64,000 nt of DNA, taken from positions 1 through 64,000 of the IMG/VR virus record IMGVR_UViG_3300037067_003400. One strand, 5' to 3'. A program made the translations under genes and the position numbers. Shown in pieces: positions 1-36,003 of this stretch. The notes beneath the pieces are model-generated. The model searched no databases, was not told the DNA's origin, and saw nothing but the letters and a program-made list of their open reading frames with translations. This DNA comes from a virus (lineage: Duplodnaviria; Caudoviricetes). The number at the start of each line of letters is the position of its first letter. The first letter of the stretch is position 1.

Positions 1-822
1 CATATTATCATAAATCTTCTTTAAATATCCTACATAGAAAGCATGTATATTACTTCCAGAAGGCTTTACAAATGTATTATTACGATAGGTTCCGTAAGTT
101 CCATCATATATCTGAGTAGTTCCTCCACTTAGAAGGCACCCTTGTATTACCCCAGAAGTCATATTCCTTACTATATAACCAGTTCCACCTAATAGTTTTA
201 TGTTGCTATCTATTAGAGCTACTATAGAGTTTACTCTTTTAGTAGCAGCTACAGCCGGGGTTACACTTATAGACGTAGCTGTTACTCCACTACATGTATG
301 ATATACTGTTGGATAACTTTCAGAAAGCTCAGTTACTATAGCTACTGTTTTTCCTACCCACTCTGCTGAAGGAACTGCTGTATTTACTGGTAACTCTACA
401 GCATTTACTGGTGTGGCTGCTGTCAGGTTGCACCATCTCACAGTAGGAGGAGTTCCATAAATGTTGATATGATTACTTGTAGATATATAGATTCCATTAG
501 AGCCGCTAGTTTGAATAGTAAGTAAAGTTTCTTTAGGAAGTGGAACTTCTTCAGTGCCTATACTTATGTAGCCTGTTCCTGTTAGATCTGCGCTTAGTTT
601 TAAGAAATATGGCCCACCTGTAGTTTGACAAGTTAGAGTTCCTACTGCTGATAAAGTTACACCCTGAGTCCAAACTGAGTGGTCCGCATCAAAGGTTACA
701 GTGTGTCCAGCTGCTATTACTACAGTATCCCCAGATGTAGGAACTGCTGACCCAGACCAGGTTAAAGTATTACTCCATAACCCATTTGTTACACTTGTTT
801 TAGATCCAACTGGTCCGGGCAT
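1..822 (-). CDS. Partial virion appendage (tailspike/fibre-like) protein with G8-like N-terminus; paralogue of 822..2993; runs off the window edge
   Basis: Not in the ORF track. The ATG at 822 overlaps the upstream stop (TAATG) and is in frame with an open reading at the window edge. Translation MPGPVGSKTSVTNGLWSNTLTWSGSAVPTSGDTVVIAAGHTVTFD...GGPYFLK...SAEW aligns with the N-terminus of the 723-aa neighbour. Confidence 0.75.
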   Translation of the reverse strand, partial: MPGPVGSKTSVTNGLWSNTLTWSGSAVPTSGDTVVIAAGHTVTFDADHSVWTQGVTLSAVGTLTCQTTGGPYFLKLSADLTGTGYISIGTEEVPLPKETLLTIQTSGSNGIYISTSNHINIYGTPPTVRWCNLTAATPVNAVELPVNTAVPSAEWVGKTVAIVTELSESYPTVYHTCSGVTATSISVTPAVAATKRVNSIVALIDSNIKLLGGTGYIVRNMTSGVIQGCLLSGGTTQIYDGTYGTYRNNTFVKPSGSNIHAFYVGYLKKIYDNM

Positions 823-2993
823 TAGAGTATCATCCTCTCATTGTGAGAAGACTGTTTCTTATACCATAGATAGGAAGATAGTCCTGTAGGGTCATCTGCT
901 AGTATTCTTAGTTTACATGGTATGCTATAAGATTCTGTGTTTGTATAAGTAAGTGTATCCTCTTTCCATAAGGTATCTTCTTCAGCTACCCAAGGTTGTG
1001 CTACACTTCCAGAACAAAACATAAATCCACAGTATTTTACTGTGTCTACTGTAGGGTCTGCTATATTTTCATAGAATATAGGATAGGCATAGTATGAAGA
1101 TGGTGGTGCTGTAAATCCTTCACTTTTTATGTATTGCCAAGATGAAGATGCATCTGCTACAACATAAACTGGGTCACCACATGCACCATATCCAATAGTT
1201 TGCCAACTAATAGCTAATGTAAATGGTCTATTATTTTTTACCCACATACCTACTGAATAAGTGCTACCAGATGTTACTACTATCCTTTGGTCAAAGGATG
1301 TAATTTCACAAGCACCCTGTATAGTACCACTTGTGATACTTAGCGCTGTTGGAAATCCAGGAGCTACATCTGAAGTTTGTATAGTGTATATACAGGTTGG
1401 AGCATTATATAGGTCAGTAGTATTATCCTCTAACATATACTGGTTTCTACTAACTATATTATAATTAGTATCATAGGATAGCTGAGTTTGTGCCAGTATA
1501 CTTTCATCCCCAAATCTCTTAGGGTCTGCTCCTGCTTTGTATAAGTAGGCTGTAGGAGCTGTTATGAATGCTGAGGAGGACTTGCCATATAAAGTAAAGG
1601 TCGCTCTTTCTCCAGGAGCTATAGATTGTGCTTCATCTACCCATACTTCATTATCAATGTTAGTTGAGATAAATTGATGTAACTCCCCTAAGTATGGATG
1701 GGCTACAATAGAAGATACTGCTCTGCCACTGGAAGTCCATGCCTGGTGTACACCATTTGGAGTTATCAAATCAAAAAAGCTGTGGTCTTGCTTATTTCTT
1801 CCTTCCCAAACACCGTTATAATCTGAAGTAGTTCCAACCACTGTGCTATTTGTAGCTGTTATTCTACCTTGATGGCTTATTGTATTCCATGAGCTTAGAA
1901 CACAACTATCTAACTGCATCTCTGATCTATAGGCTCCTTCAGCTACTACTGATATATTACAGTTATTAGCTACTAATGGAGCTCCCATAGAGAACCAGGT
2001 ACACCCATAGTAAGTGCTATCATTGATAGTAGTATTTGTAGCATAGACATTAGCATACCCACTACCATAAAAGAATAGGTTTTCTATCTTATTATTATAG
2101 GAGTAGTATATTCCCTGATTACACCCAGCTGAGATACCGCCAGAGATATATGTATCGACTCCTCCATTAGTTATATTCCCAGTACCAGTAAAAATATTAT
2201 CGTAGAATTTACTAGCAGTGTCTGACCCTATAGCTGTACTTCCTCTATCAAATAAACAACTTGTAAAGGTGCTTCGTATGGAACCATAGAGACAGTTTGT
2301 TGTGCCACTACCATTTAATAAAACATTGGTTAATATCCCGGAGGTTATACCACGTATAAGGTATGAAGTAGAATTTGTTATTGTTATATTTCTATCTGCT
2401 AGGAATACATAGGAACCTAATGCTCTACTGACAGTAAGAGCTGGTGTTATCCCTATAGAGGTAGTAGTTAAACTAGTGCATGTTAGAGTAGTTGCAGAAC
2501 TCCCAGATTGCCAGTTGCATATTCTTATTGTTTTATTAAGCCATTCTGCTGAGGAGACTGCTGTGTCTACTGCTATTGTAGCAGCCCCTATAGCTGCTGT
2601 GGCTGTCATCTTACAGTATGGGTTGGTTGGGGGAGTTCCCTTAAAGTTTATAGCGCTTCCACCAGTCATGTATAGATAACGAGCCCCACCAGTAAAGTCT
2701 ATTGTAAATCTTGGATTATATGTACCAGCCCTTGCGCCAACCGCTGTGAAAGTTCCGGTTCCAGTTATATTGGCCCCCATCTTAAGATAGTAAGGACCAC
2801 CACTAATTAATAAGGCAAGAGAGCCATTAATTACTAAAGCAGCTAATCCAGTAGACCAACTAGACTGATCAACATCAAAGACTACACTATGTCCAGCTGT
2901 TATAGTTACACTATCCCCACTTGTAGGAACAGAGCCACCCCATACTCCAGTAGTGCTCCACGAGCCAGAGTCTATACTAGTCTTAGTAGCCAC
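822..2993 (-). CDS. Virion appendage protein: G8-like N-terminal domain, beta-helix-like repeats, C-terminal CBM-like jelly-roll
   Basis: N-terminal SGSWS...W.G.VP..GD.V.I.AGH.V.FD pattern; Asn/Gly/Cys-rich periodic middle region; position downstream of the head genes. Confidence 0.6.
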   Translation of the reverse strand: MATKTSIDSGSWSTTGVWGGSVPTSGDSVTITAGHSVVFDVDQSSWSTGLAALVINGSLALLISGGPYYLKMGANITGTGTFTAVGARAGTYNPRFTIDFTGGARYLYMTGGSAINFKGTPPTNPYCKMTATAAIGAATIAVDTAVSSAEWLNKTIRICNWQSGSSATTLTCTSLTTTSIGITPALTVSRALGSYVFLADRNITITNSTSYLIRGITSGILTNVLLNGSGTTNCLYGSIRSTFTSCLFDRGSTAIGSDTASKFYDNIFTGTGNITNGGVDTYISGGISAGCNQGIYYSYNNKIENLFFYGSGYANVYATNTTINDSTYYGCTWFSMGAPLVANNCNISVVAEGAYRSEMQLDSCVLSSWNTISHQGRITATNSTVVGTTSDYNGVWEGRNKQDHSFFDLITPNGVHQAWTSSGRAVSSIVAHPYLGELHQFISTNIDNEVWVDEAQSIAPGERATFTLYGKSSSAFITAPTAYLYKAGADPKRFGDESILAQTQLSYDTNYNIVSRNQYMLEDNTTDLYNAPTCIYTIQTSDVAPGFPTALSITSGTIQGACEITSFDQRIVVTSGSTYSVGMWVKNNRPFTLAISWQTIGYGACGDPVYVVADASSSWQYIKSEGFTAPPSSYYAYPIFYENIADPTVDTVKYCGFMFCSGSVAQPWVAEEDTLWKEDTLTYTNTESYSIPCKLRILADDPTGLSSYLWYKKQSSHNERMIL

Positions 2994-3376
2994 TACTTAA
3001 TACCTTCTACCTTTTCATCTATAGGTGGTTTTATAGGCTCTGTTATAGGTTTAGTAGCTAACTCTTCTTTAGCATCGTAGATTATCTTATCAAAAGGTCT
3101 TGTTCCTAAAGTGTTTACTTTAGAGAATGAGTAGTTCTTTGTATATTCTATTTCTGCTTGTATAGGAACTTTGGTAAATCCATAATGCACTATCATCAAA
3201 TCTAAGACTAGCTGCTCATCTATAGTATCAGAGTTGTCTGCTAAAGTTGGAGCTATCTTTCTAACTATGTCTGTAATCATAGTCTCAAACTGAGCTTGTG
3301 TATACACTGTTTTATGCTGAAGTAGAACCTCAGTTTTTATAGTATGCTCTTCTGTTATTATTTTATATATAGCCAT
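2993..3376 (-). CDS. Hypothetical protein of the structural operon
   Basis: Translationally coupled to both neighbours (TAGTG overlap). Confidence 0.6.
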   Translation of the reverse strand: MAIYKIITEEHTIKTEVLLQHKTVYTQAQFETMITDIVRKIAPTLADNSDTIDEQLVLDLMIVHYGFTKVPIQAEIEYTKNYSFSKVNTLGTRPFDKIIYDAKEELATKPITEPIKPPIDEKVEGIK

Positions 3377-31737: not shown

Positions 31738-32365
31738 ATATCCTCCACTCTATCCTACATATATATTATACCCGCATTCCACTAATTTAAACACTGTTTT
31801 TTGTTACATATGTAACATTTAATTATTTATCTATTTATTATTAAATGTAACATTTAATTAAACTTTGCCTTTTTTACATATAGTCTGTAAGCCAAGGAGG
31901 AAATAATATTCCCAGAAAACAAAAATACTAAGCCCCACCCCCTTTTACATAGTATATAGTAAACAGAGGAAGACTCCTCTTACGTAAGGTCTACCCCCCT
32001 TAATAGAAAGACTATTAAGGTCTGTCCCCTTGGTATAGTCGTAGATACCAAAGGTACCTACTATAGTTACCAAGGTCTGCCTCCTATAAGAGATGCTTTA
32101 TATATAAGGTATCCCTCTATAAGATAACTATTTTTCTTAATACACTTCCGAAGATATTTTTAATATCTTCTATTCCTAACTCTATAGAAAGATCTCAAAA
32201 TTTAATCATTCTTCCAGCACTAGGTATATATTCAAGAAGGTGGGGGTATACTCTTTGTTTAGCCCAACCCGTTGATGATACATCAACGTCTATCCTCTTG
32301 TGTGTATAGCTTTAGTAGACACTCAAAGTAGATTACAGTTACTAAGGCAAAGAAAGGAAAGAACA
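31738..32365. promoter_or_regulatory. Divergent intergenic control region between the two arms
   Basis: Strand switch; contains the palindromic operator (31803), AAGGT repeats, several hairpins and a minus-strand TATAAT near 31765-31770. Confidence 0.7.
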
Positions 32366-32905
32366 ATGTCTTTCAACTTATTCGAAACAATCGGCAATGC
32401 AGTAGCCAACCTGCAAACAACAAAAGTACAGGAAGTCTTAGACTTCGTGTACGATAAGAGTGTTGAGGCTAAAGAAGCCTTAACGCCAAGCTATGATCTT
32501 ATCTACGACAAAGTCGTAGAAGTAAAAGAGTCGATAGTTGACTCTTACTACACTGGCTACAACTCAGTAGTCAAGACAACAGAAGAAGAAGTCAACCCTA
32601 TCATGTGTGGAGTTGACGAGTCAACAGTTAAAGCGTTCTTTAATGCTTACTTAAAGAACAGAGATATAGATGCTACCAAAGCATCATTCATATCTCTTGG
32701 CTTGTTGTCTACTGCACAAGCTGAGTTCATTGCTGCTGCAGTAGCAGCAGATGTGGCCAAGTATGGCAACATACTTGATCCATTAACAGATGAGAAGCCT
32801 GTTAAAACAGAGGCTCCTAAAGAAGGATGTGTTTCTTTAGAAGAAGAATTAGAGTCGGCTTTAGCAGAAGCTAAAGAATACGATTCAAAGAGATTGAAAT
32901 TCTAG
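32366..32905 (+). CDS. Hypothetical early protein (start revised to the ATG at 32366)
   Basis: AAGGA RBS before MSFNLFE; internal repeat YDKSVEAKE / YDKVVEVKE. Confidence 0.65.
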   Translation: MSFNLFETIGNAVANLQTTKVQEVLDFVYDKSVEAKEALTPSYDLIYDKVVEVKESIVDSYYTGYNSVVKTTEEEVNPIMCGVDESTVKAFFNAYLKNRDIDATKASFISLGLLSTAQAEFIAAAVAADVAKYGNILDPLTDEKPVKTEAPKEGCVSLEEELESALAEAKEYDSKRLKF

Positions 32906-33059
32906 TCTCTAGACAGAGCTCTCTGGGTGCATGCTCAGAGGGCTCTACTGTAGGGACTACAGTGAAGAACATAGTTCTTCTACACTTAAGTTAGTTACTA
33001 CTATGCTAGATGACACTCACTCTAACGAGGGGATTACAGAACTAGCAAAGGAGAGATCA

Positions 33060-33341
33060 ATGCTTAGAAGTATCGAACAGGAATTAGACCGCTTAGTCGA
33101 GTTCAAGGAAATCACAAAAGAAGTCAGACATGACTTCTACCTAGTAGCACTTGACATAGCTGCTAGCTGGGCATTAAGCAACTACCCAGCAACAGCTTCA
33201 CTATCCCTCCAAGCCAGTCACGCTGGTGTTGGAGCTACCGCTTGGTCAGATACCAAATGGTTTGGTGTTTGCCCAGTTACTCGCTCTAGAGGACCTAAAC
33301 TCAATGAGCAGCTAACAAAAATTAGAGATAACCAACTCTAA
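33060..33341 (+). CDS. Hypothetical early protein (start revised)
   Basis: AAGGAG RBS before MLRSIEQ; the tracked start at 32931 lies inside a long hairpin. Confidence 0.6.
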   Translation: MLRSIEQELDRLVEFKEITKEVRHDFYLVALDIAASWALSNYPATASLSLQASHAGVGATAWSDTKWFGVCPVTRSRGPKLNEQLTKIRDNQL

Positions 33342-33347
33342 TCTTAA

Positions 33348-33420
33348 AGCCGAAACTAGGGGAGTCACAATACCCCTAGTCTATGCATACTGAGCATATG
33401 CATACTGATGAGGTTACTCA
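33348..33420 (+). ncRNA. Type II hammerhead ribozyme
   Basis: AGCC-GAAA-CTAGGGG/CCCCTAG-TC-TATGCATA/TATGCATA-CTGATGA-GGTT: complete core, GUC cleavage triplet, three stems. Confidence 0.9.
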
Positions 33421-33446
33421 CAGAAAAACACTCAAAGGAGACTGAA

Positions 33447-33779
33447 ATGTTAAGAGCACCTAAGGATTTTTTGTGGGGTTTTCCACAAGAAAAAGTTGAA
33501 GTTACACAAAGTGTTGAACCAGCACAAAGTGTAGGAGATTTTATTGACGAGGCATTTGATTCAATTGATAGGGAAAGTTATAAGAGAGTGACATTTAAGT
33601 CCTCTCAGCTTTCTCTTAGACTTTTAAGAGAATCCCTTTATAAGGGAGATGAGAAAGACATAAAGTATAAAATCGAGGGTTGCCTCGAAGCTTTAGTGGA
33701 AAGATATGAGTATTGGTTACACAAAGACCCAGAGTTTGAGGCTCTTAGGGTTGTTTGTAAACAAATGGCTGAATGCTAA
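33447..33779 (+). CDS. Hypothetical early protein (start revised)
   Basis: AAGGAG RBS before MLRAPKD; the tracked ATG at 33408 is part of the hammerhead CTGATGA. Confidence 0.65.
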   Translation: MLRAPKDFLWGFPQEKVEVTQSVEPAQSVGDFIDEAFDSIDRESYKRVTFKSSQLSLRLLRESLYKGDEKDIKYKIEGCLEALVERYEYWLHKDPEFEALRVVCKQMAEC

Positions 33780-33906
33780 TTAGTTTCTAAAACATTGCTC
33801 CTTTATTATGACCAACTGCATAGAAGATAGTTTTATCTATCTTCGATAATGAAGGGGCTTTGTTGTAGGAATTAAATCATTAACCTACAATTCAAAGGAG
33901 GAAGTT

Positions 33907-36003
33907 ATGAACGTAGTATGTAAGTTGTCTGGAGCTTCTATAGGAGATGCTCCTAATTGGAGAGGTGTATGTGAACTTGTAAAGAAGTATACCTCTGGGG
34001 AACTTCCAAGTCCCCAAATTCTTAGTCTTGGTGCTGGAATTAACTGCACCACATTACTTGCTCGGAACACAAAAGATTCAGTAACTTTTCCTGTGTTCTA
34101 TTTTGAAGTGTATAACAAAGGAGTGAATTAATGGTGCACGTCTCAGAAATTTTAAAGCAACTCATATTAGAAGAGATTGAGGAAAGAACTTCTGGGGGTA
34201 ATTCTTTGACCCCAGATGATTTTGTTTCTATTGTTGAGAGAAAGGTTAATCTCTTAGGAGACAAAGCCTTCTCTCAAGACGTGGTATCTACTGCTCGTGA
34301 AAACAAAAGACAAGCAGAGAAAGCTATCGGAAAGAGGGCGGAAGAATCTTCCCAGTTTACCAGGGAAGCCGCATTGAATATTCTTGCAAGTATAGTTTCT
34401 TTAGGAGGGATGTAAAATGAATAAGTGGATTAAAACATTAGTAGTGTTAGGCGGATTTGTAGTAGTGGACAGAGTTATAGCAAAGGCTATAAATGAAGCT
34501 ACAAAAGCAAGTAATAGAAGAGTCATTGAAAAAATACTTGCTGACTTCCCAGATAGAAACATAATCACATTTGGAGGCAAGAAATGAATAAGGTACTTGG
34601 AATTATTGCTATAGCTATTGCAGCTGTAGCTGGTGAAATTCTGATTGACAAACTAATTGAGGAGCCTTGTAGAAAGGCTCATGAGAGAACAGTCAAACAG
34701 ATTCTGGAAGCATACCCAGAAAGAAAATTCATTGTGTTGGGAGGCAAAGATGAAAAAGGCAATTAAAGTATTACTGGCTGCTGTTGCAGTCATAGGTTTC
34801 CTCTTTCTGCTGGAGTACACAGCAGAATTTGTAGCTACTAAGATACCGGCAGAGGTAGTCATACCTCTGTTTTTTGTAGGGCTCTTCGTAGGGCTCTACA
34901 TCTTCTTTAGCAGAGAAGATAATTAATTCACTGGGGAGCTCTCTTTGGGCTCCCTTAGTTTATTCACCTCTCGATTTGTAAAAGGAGTACATTAAATGGA
35001 ACAGCTTATTGGATTCGTAGGAAAAAACGTAGACCATGAGGTCGGCGACGTTATGGAGCTTGGGACCGTCACAAAAGTAGAATATGATAAAACTACTAAC
35101 GTAACAACTGTTACAATAAAAGAAACTAATCCCTGTGAGGGATGTTATGAAGATGAATGCACAAATATAGCTTGTGCAAACTACATAGCTTAGTTTCTAC
35201 ACCAAGCTCCTTGCCCACACACCGAAGGAGGAATTCTTCTCCGCAGGGGGCTTGGCTGTGGGAATTACCGAAGAATCAATGATTCTTCTACATACCCACT
35301 ATACCCAAAGGAGGGTAACATGAAGAATATAATTGTTTTAGTTAGAGGTGATCCTATTGTTCACCTAACGGAATTGGTATATCGGGAGTGGCTTGTAGAA
35401 TCAGAGCCTTCCGAGGGAACTGGGAATGTAGTTTCCGGCGACGAACTTATAGCTCTATTAAGAGCACTGAGGTCTCAGTATGGGACAGAATTTAAAGTGG
35501 AGAGATATTAAATGAAACAGGAAGCTCAAGCAACAATTATTGAAATGGCAAAAGGTTGTAAGTTTGGTGGAGAAACTTACAATATAAATGATGCTGTATA
35601 CCCAGTGAAAGAAACTATGATAGGTTTAACCTATATGACTATAGGTAAAATTACTGTCATACAGCAAAATATTGCTAAGGATCCAGCAAATAAAAAAGCA
35701 ACCCTGAATAGGTTTGTTGTAAGCTTAGATGCTGGTTCTACCGACGAATACTTCCTCACGAAGACAATAGGGGAAGTCTTTTATACTCGTAAAGGTAATA
35801 TCTTCAAATTCAGTGAATACAAAAACACTGAAGCAAGAAAGACAATGAAGAAAGTTGGACCCAAATCCAGAAGTGCGGATACTTCAATAGCATCCACCGG
35901 GAACTCTGCTAGAGTTCCCTACACTGGGTCCAAGGAGTCGAAGACTCCGGTAGCTGCTAAAGCGTCTGCCAACAAAGATGCTGAGGCTACTAAAGTTGCC
36001 TAA
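33907..36003 (+). CDS. Cluster of small early ORFs (33907, 34131, 34417, 34584, 34750, 34996, 35320, 35512)
   Basis: Most have AGGAG/GGAGG RBSs or are coupled; 34417..34587 (56 aa, not tracked) and 34584..34766 are tandem paralogues. Confidence 0.6.

Follow-up and report, generated by a model that had tools for sequence, protein, structure and literature searches.

A probable type II hammerhead ribozyme between two orphan genes of an uncultured phage

We analyzed a 64,000-nucleotide stretch of DNA, hereafter the window, which represents the first 64 kb of a 211-kb, ~98% complete record from an uncultured phage. The window carries a terminase gene, and its coding strand switches around 31.7-32.3 kb. 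A candidate hammerhead ribozyme lies in sense orientation 3' of the second plus-strand gene, within a 105-nt spacer (33342-33446), bounded by the stop codon of the upstream open reading frame (33339-33341) and by the start codon of a small downstream gene (Table 1). No promoter-like or terminator-like site was found in this spacer. An in-frame ATG at 33408 falls inside the catalytic core and is devoid of a ribosome-binding site, and the public gene call also begins at 33447. That the flanking genes are early, as the original prediction had called them, we infer only from their position by the strand switch, among small orphan genes. The neighbouring junctions feature stable hairpins (32903-32959, 33781-33874 and 35191-35267; -36 to -40 kcal/mol, with z-scores of -4.6 to -6.4), all of which overlap or directly follow stop codons and may be terminators or sites of RNase III-type processing.

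The genes around the ribozyme are poorly connected to known sequences. A blastn search with 2.2 kb around the site against GenBank phages gave no match, and no IMG/VR relatives were found for either flanking protein or for a 519-aa protein encoded 3 kb downstream. Comparison of the neighbouring genes with Pfam and PHROGs returned nothing informative, and an atlas look-up of both flanking proteins led only to unnamed clusters. The downstream 110-aa protein matched only itself in a word-based search of 5.8 billion proteins and in a HMMER search of 1.84 billion representatives; its only other record is an identical copy, with the same gene order, on a 16.9-kb contig from a sequencing run. The nearest terminase relatives (~50% identity; records L009 and L011) are syntenic with the window on the packaging side and have two small downstream genes in common with it. 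Both lack the three genes around the ribozyme, and no hammerhead was detected anywhere in their records, which indicates that the element sits in a variable region. An orthologous locus was not found, and the window copy hence has no locus-specific conservation or covariation of its own, covariation being available at the family level only.

Direct reading of positions 33200-33560 recovered each component of the type II hammerhead that the original prediction had proposed, at the place where it had been put, and the 7-bp stem III described there becomes 8 bp once the A15.1-U16.1 pair is counted. GAAA at 33352-33355 supplies G12, A13, A14 and A15.1, and A33355 pairs with T33380 in a stem III made of 33355-33362 and 33373-33380, whose hairpin reaches -11.7 kcal/mol in a constrained fold. 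The cleavage triplet GTC occupies 33379-33381, with C33381 as the single non-G base separating the stem III and stem I hairpins. Stem I is formed by TATGCATA (33382-33389) and TATGCATA (33397-33404), while stem II includes one G-U pair (G33349-T33414) among its 4 bp and is closed by G10.1-C11.1 (G33412/C33351). All the invariant core bases of the hammerhead are present (~13 constrained positions). Their order, 11.x-GAA-III-H17-I-CUGANGA-10.x, is that of the type II permutation, with descriptor stems of 8, 8 and 4 bp, stem II being open and stems III and I being capped by loops. In addition, the loop I bases TGAG (33391-33394) could pair without mismatch with CTCA (33417-33420), from which a pseudoknot between loop I and the 3' tail is predicted.

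Table 1. Coordinates of the hammerhead motif and its flanking genes in the window, and of the single hammerheads in three distant phage records.
Feature	Position	Strand	Basis or remark
Stem II, 11.x strand AGCC; C33351 = C11.1	33348-33351	+	Pairs with GGTT 33412-33415, 4 bp
Core G12 A13 A14	33352-33354	+	Direct read; falls on the invariant GAA when aligned with model R1
Stem III hairpin, 8 bp including A15.1-U16.1, 10-nt loop	33355-33380	+	Read, fold, descriptor
C17, predicted cleavage site (C33381/U33382)	33381	+	Hammerhead numbering of the GUC triplet
Stem I hairpin, 8 bp, 7-nt loop CUGAGCA	33382-33404	+	Read, fold, descriptor
Core C3 U4 G5 A6 U7 G8 A9	33405-33411	+	CTGATGA by direct read; aligned to the R1 invariant block
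Stem II, 10.x strand GGUU; G33412 = G10.1	33412-33415	+	Read, descriptor
3' tail CUCA, predicted pseudoknot partner of loop I UGAG (33391-33394)	33417-33420	+	4 Watson-Crick pairs, offset 5 from G10.1
Competing hairpin CUG/CAG + UGAG/CUCA	33405-33423	+	In the minimum-energy fold
Upstream gene, 136 aa, orphan	32931-33341	+	Stop codon 6 nt 5' of the ribozyme
Downstream gene, 110 aa, orphan	33447-33779	+	Shine-Dalgarno AGGAG 33437-33441
L019 hammerhead, type II	115-164	-	Stem I of 8 bp with 7-nt loop and pseudoknot offset as in the window
L029 hammerhead, type III	2988-3046	-	Rfam, 48.5 bits
L058 hammerhead, type III	2971-3029	-	Rfam, 40.2 bits

The probability of encountering such a motif fortuitously was evaluated with a loose descriptor covering types I, II and III, which required a perfect core but stems of only 4, 3 and 2 bp. 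Applied to both strands of the 210,951-bp genome, it returned the flagged site as its sole match. Sixty dinucleotide-preserving shuffles of the genome yielded seven loose type II matches, that is 0.12 per genome, none of which combined two stems longer than 5 bp and most of which had very long loops. The fold of the intergenic spacer has a z-score of -3.4. A chance origin of the motif is excluded. When degenerate hammerheads were sought with relaxed, energy-based criteria, both in the genome and in 51 loci related by terminase, the additional candidates were all long and implausible.

The search with hammerhead models advocated in the original prediction was negative with the Rfam Hammerhead_II model (RF02276) and positive with a model trained on other sequences. 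At the gathering score, Rfam had no match over the whole window, and Hammerhead_II had none at E<=10 on a 271-nt slice, on an 85-nt slice or on the whole genome. The only Rfam match to the slices at E<=10 was a partial one to Hammerhead_3 (13-14.5 bits), which reuses stem I and CUGAUGA. The flagged site does not reach the RF02276 gathering cut-off of 37 bits, and the same holds for four other clear viral type II hammerheads (L059, L060, L061 and L062; records G001 and G002), to which this model gives 26-34 bits. We also report the outcome of a covariance model, R1, derived from an alignment (A1) of 66 other viral type II hammerheads from which the window sequence was left out. R1 aligned over its full length (model positions 1-69) to the site with 48.9 bits and an E-value of 1.5e-11, part of this score stemming from construction, since the training set was picked by a 17-base signature taken from the window's sequence. 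No other match was found in the genome, and the next one in the window obtained 10.3 bits. In the same contigs that supplied its training set, R1 also finds ~40 more hammerheads lacking the signature, at 29-58 bits.

Since no orthologue was available, ribozymes of the same build were sought with the signature GTCTAT-N15-19-ATACTGATGAG, whose fixed bases are limited to the core strand, the cleavage triplet and both ends of stem I. In the viral contigs of IMG/VR, it was encountered in 103 stretches, with 109 matches. In 87 of these, the other parts of a complete type II hammerhead are correctly placed as well, namely GAAA, the stem III hairpin and a stem II strand able to pair. A pattern in which the window's own stem II was fixed (AGCC...GGTT) gave six matches, only one of them a real hammerhead, and an unrelated one; it was discarded.

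The 67 distinct sequences of the resulting family provide a frame for the dimensions of the window copy. Stem I with its loop measures ~23 nt, the combination of 8 bp and a 7-nt loop occurring in five of the 67. Stem II ranges from 1 to 6 bp, with 3 bp as the commonest length and 4 bp in nine sequences. The stem III hairpin spans 12-45 nt, and the 26 nt of the window copy (8 bp and a 10-nt loop), long in comparison with known type II hammerheads, lie in the upper part of this range. Pairing holds in 96.7% of the cells of a 114-member alignment, and both partners vary in 11 of the 13 pairs. The covariation score of this alignment reaches 0.78, whereas shuffled pairs give 0.18 and slid partners no more than 0.09, with the proviso that the 114 sequences were fitted to the model and that the structure is thereby favoured in these statistics.

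The complementarity between loop I and the tail averages 4.18 bp in the family, as compared with 3.07 bp when the loops are shuffled, and the 3' strand of the putative pseudoknot starts 3-5 nt past G10.1. The window, with 4 bp and an offset of 5, resembles L127, L128 and L086 in this respect. Judged from sequence complementarity, the predicted loop I/tail pseudoknot is a feature of the family and the window copy is typical in both length and offset, in agreement with the work of Perreault et al. (2011, PMC3088659), who described such pseudoknots, 4 bp or longer and immediately 3' of stem II, in the majority of type II hammerheads and demonstrated by mutation that rapid cleavage depends on them. 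In Desulfovibrio vulgaris, predicted type II hammerheads in the vicinity of phage-like genes have been found to self-cleave in vivo (PMC8782182).

The position of the ribozyme relative to its neighbours is also shared. In the family, the stop codon of a same-strand open reading frame precedes the ribozyme by a median of 5 nt (60 of 67 sequences), and a start codon with a Shine-Dalgarno sequence is found 3' of G10.1 in 56 of 67, at a median distance of 34.5 nt; the corresponding values are 6 nt and, for ATG 33447, 35 nt in the window. On these spacings, the placement of the window copy is the standard intercistronic layout of the family. The downstream leader contains ACUCA twice (33416-33420 and 33430-33434); the second copy lies just 5' of the Shine-Dalgarno sequence and could also pair with the UGAG of loop I or with the UGAG of the core. 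With a complete core, a non-chance origin, 48.9 bits in an outside-trained model, and dimensions and a layout typical of more than 100 viral type II hammerheads, the proposal that this site is an intact type II hammerhead, with a pseudoknot predicted between loop I and the 3' tail, is strongly supported.

Type II hammerheads already described in bacteria, prophages and phages (PMC3088659; RF02276) share with the window copy the permutation, the invariant core and the G10.1-C11.1 pair, as well as a sense orientation between small phage genes and a pseudoknot, predicted in the window, in which 4 bp or more join loop I to the nucleotides just 3' of stem II. The window copy differs in scoring below any reportable threshold of RF02276 and in being single in a 211-kb genome rather than part of a gene-flanking array. 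It also resembles the viral "GUC/UAU...AUA-CUGAUGAG" subclass from IMG/VR (alignments A1 and A2), exemplified by L128 (6534-6600, minus strand) and L127/L019, in which stem I and its loop measure 23 nt. L127 and L128 have the same 8-bp stem I with a 7-nt loop and the same start of the putative pseudoknot 3' strand, 5 nt past G10.1, and stem I of L128 opens with TATGCA, as does that of the window. The subclass also shows the same succession of stop codon, ribozyme and then ~35 nt to the next start. In contrast, stem II has 4 bp in the window whereas 3 bp is the commonest length in the subclass, and the loop and tail sequences and the host genomes are unrelated. Members of the subclass often occur in arrays, with up to nine per contig. 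Such type II arrays, within a few kb of IMG/VR contigs, comprise nine hammerheads in L163, five in L111 and four each in L139, L092, L152 and L104.

A different kind of likeness emerged from three records with more distant terminases (32-36% identity) and partial synteny, L019, L029 and L058, each of which contains exactly one hammerhead (Table 1). These three ribozymes are sense-oriented and follow either the first gene or the second in an operon that diverges from the packaging module. L029 and L058 share their type III hammerhead, with compensatory changes between the two copies. As in the window, it is the only hammerhead of the record and follows the second gene in sense orientation, just 5' of the next ribosome-binding site; unlike in the window, stem III is open, and there is no sequence similarity beyond the core. 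The proteins flanking the hammerheads in L019, L029, L058 and the window are not homologous. At the equivalent position of 12 other related loci, no ribozyme was found, nor any other class at the Rfam gathering score. A search for further relatives of the L029/L058 type III ribozyme gave 12 matching stretches, and the only contigs above 60 kb among them were those two jumbo-phage records. In L058, a terminator-like hairpin (AGAAGCT...AGCTTCT, followed by eight T; ~3030-3085, minus strand) lies directly 5' of the type III hammerhead. The recurrence of lone hammerheads is no more than suggestive, as few as two or three independent events perhaps underlying it. We consider doubtful the idea that a jumbo-phage clade has a conserved "ribozyme slot", filled by a lone hammerhead in four records (type II in two, type III in two).

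The tail that would form the pseudoknot in the window has another potential partner. CUCACAG can pair with C3-G5 and U7-G10.1 in a hairpin of -7.2 kcal/mol that uses the same CUCA as the pseudoknot, and in a nearest-neighbour model the fold containing this hairpin attains -26.3 kcal/mol, whereas the active secondary structure has -20.8 kcal/mol, to which the pseudoknot would add about -2 kcal/mol. A real hammerhead could on these energies reside mostly in an inactive fold and cleave slowly or conditionally, as a switch instead of a constitutive cutter, the switch being relieved by, for example, a factor, ions or events in the downstream leader. The competing hairpin belongs to the minimum-energy fold and is equalled in only 19 of 2000 shuffled tails (~1%), and slower phage variants may be regulated according to Perreault et al. 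(2011, PMC3088659). Similar core-sequestering tails are seen in two related hammerheads, L072 (1432-1500, minus strand) and L108 (3138-3206, plus strand), which both keep a core-sequestering 3' hairpin in differing registers, CUGA/UCAG + GAGG/CCUC in L072 and CUG/CAG + UGAG/CUCA, as in the window, in L108. Across the family, however, hairpins of this sort amount to five of 67 sequences (7.5%), compared with 8.5% when tails are shuffled. A core-sequestering tail as a family-wide switch was rejected on this basis, and we treat the switch in the window as a minority explanation. Nearest-neighbour energies moreover leave out the tertiary contacts of the hammerhead, alternative folds are common among active natural hammerheads, and no ligand or partner is evident. 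Such a switch thus appears unlikely to us.

The remaining alternatives question the role of the ribozyme or its very nature. An intact ribozyme might have been brought in as a passenger of a variable gene cassette, in which case it may or may not cleave and would have no selected role. The absence of the ribozyme and its three surrounding genes from the syntenic region of L011, the orphan status of the flanking genes and the single copy in this genome, whereas many other phages carry arrays, are all compatible with this scenario; a neutral relic, however, would soon lose the ~13 core positions, the three perfect stems and the predicted pseudoknot that are intact here, and the spacing to the neighbouring genes fits the family optimum, so that we regard a mere passenger as improbable. 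It is hardly credible that the site is no ribozyme at all but a pair of adjacent hairpins with another function, such as a promoter, a terminator or a site acting in the DNA, that lie between GAAA and CTGATGA by accident, even if Rfam has no significant match and the operon contains other intergenic hairpins. Given two hairpins, finding the exact core words together with a one-base junction and stem II strands able to pair has a joint probability of ~1e-7 by direct reckoning, nothing comparable ever appeared in the shuffles, no T-run follows either the stem III or the stem I hairpin, and the outside-trained model returns an E-value of ~1e-11.

We consider it likely that the site is a genuine type II hammerhead in a plus-strand operon starting near 31.7-32.3 kb, where cleavage would split the transcript. 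Transcription, cleavage and effects on RNA stability at the site are what we infer from this reading. Stems III and I would fold locally as the RNA emerges, after which GGUU (33412-33415) would pair back with AGCC (33348-33351) and close the three-way junction, and CUCA (33417-33420) would pair with the UGAG of loop I (33391-33394) and hold stems I and II side by side. The 2'-OH of C33381 would then attack the C33381/U33382 phosphodiester, so that C33381 would end in a 2',3'-cyclic phosphate and U33382 would begin with a 5'-OH. The upstream message, with genes 32300-32905 and 32931-33341, would end in the GC-rich 8-bp stem III hairpin plus UC, while the downstream message would start with its 5'-OH directly on the 8-bp stem I hairpin, 65 nt before ATG 33447. 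By virtue of the type II topology, which places the cut between two hairpins, both products would have hairpin-protected ends. After cleavage the tail may, more speculatively, refold into the 33405-33423 hairpin and promote product release. The original proposal that self-cleavage processes the polycistron and provides gene 33447 with an mRNA beginning with a 5'-OH hairpin would fit hammerhead chemistry and the topology of the motif.

Exonucleases and 5'-monophosphate-dependent decay generally act poorly on RNA ends of this type. Splitting the message would also uncouple the fate of the first two cistrons from that of the rest of the operon. In T7-like phages, RNase III hairpins located between early genes cut the polycistronic transcript and leave hairpin-stabilised ends. 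There, the cut is made by a protein enzyme of the host and generates 5'-phosphate and 3'-OH ends, whereas the window RNA would cut itself and leave 5'-OH and 2',3'-cyclic phosphate ends. The likeness extends to the long hairpins at the neighbouring operon junctions, which could be sites of the RNase III type.

For the annotation of viral genomes, the Rfam Hammerhead_II model misses a viral subclass, whose clear members obtain 26-34 bits or nothing, and annotation pipelines consequently undercount such ribozymes. As an individual case, the window copy is one further clean instance beside the several hundred type II hammerheads known between phage genes, which is a modest gain. A single ribozyme amid junctions with long hairpins nevertheless offers a simple system in which to ask what a hammerhead adds over a protein-cut hairpin. 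The ribozyme slot, if true, would mean that an RNA end generated by the transcript itself is selected for at this place in the (presumed early) message, and in this phage the timing of the cut might in addition be set by the tail, which can pair with either loop I or the catalytic core. Lone hammerheads at the same operon position in distant jumbo phages give a testable hint on the biological role of bacterial and phage hammerheads.
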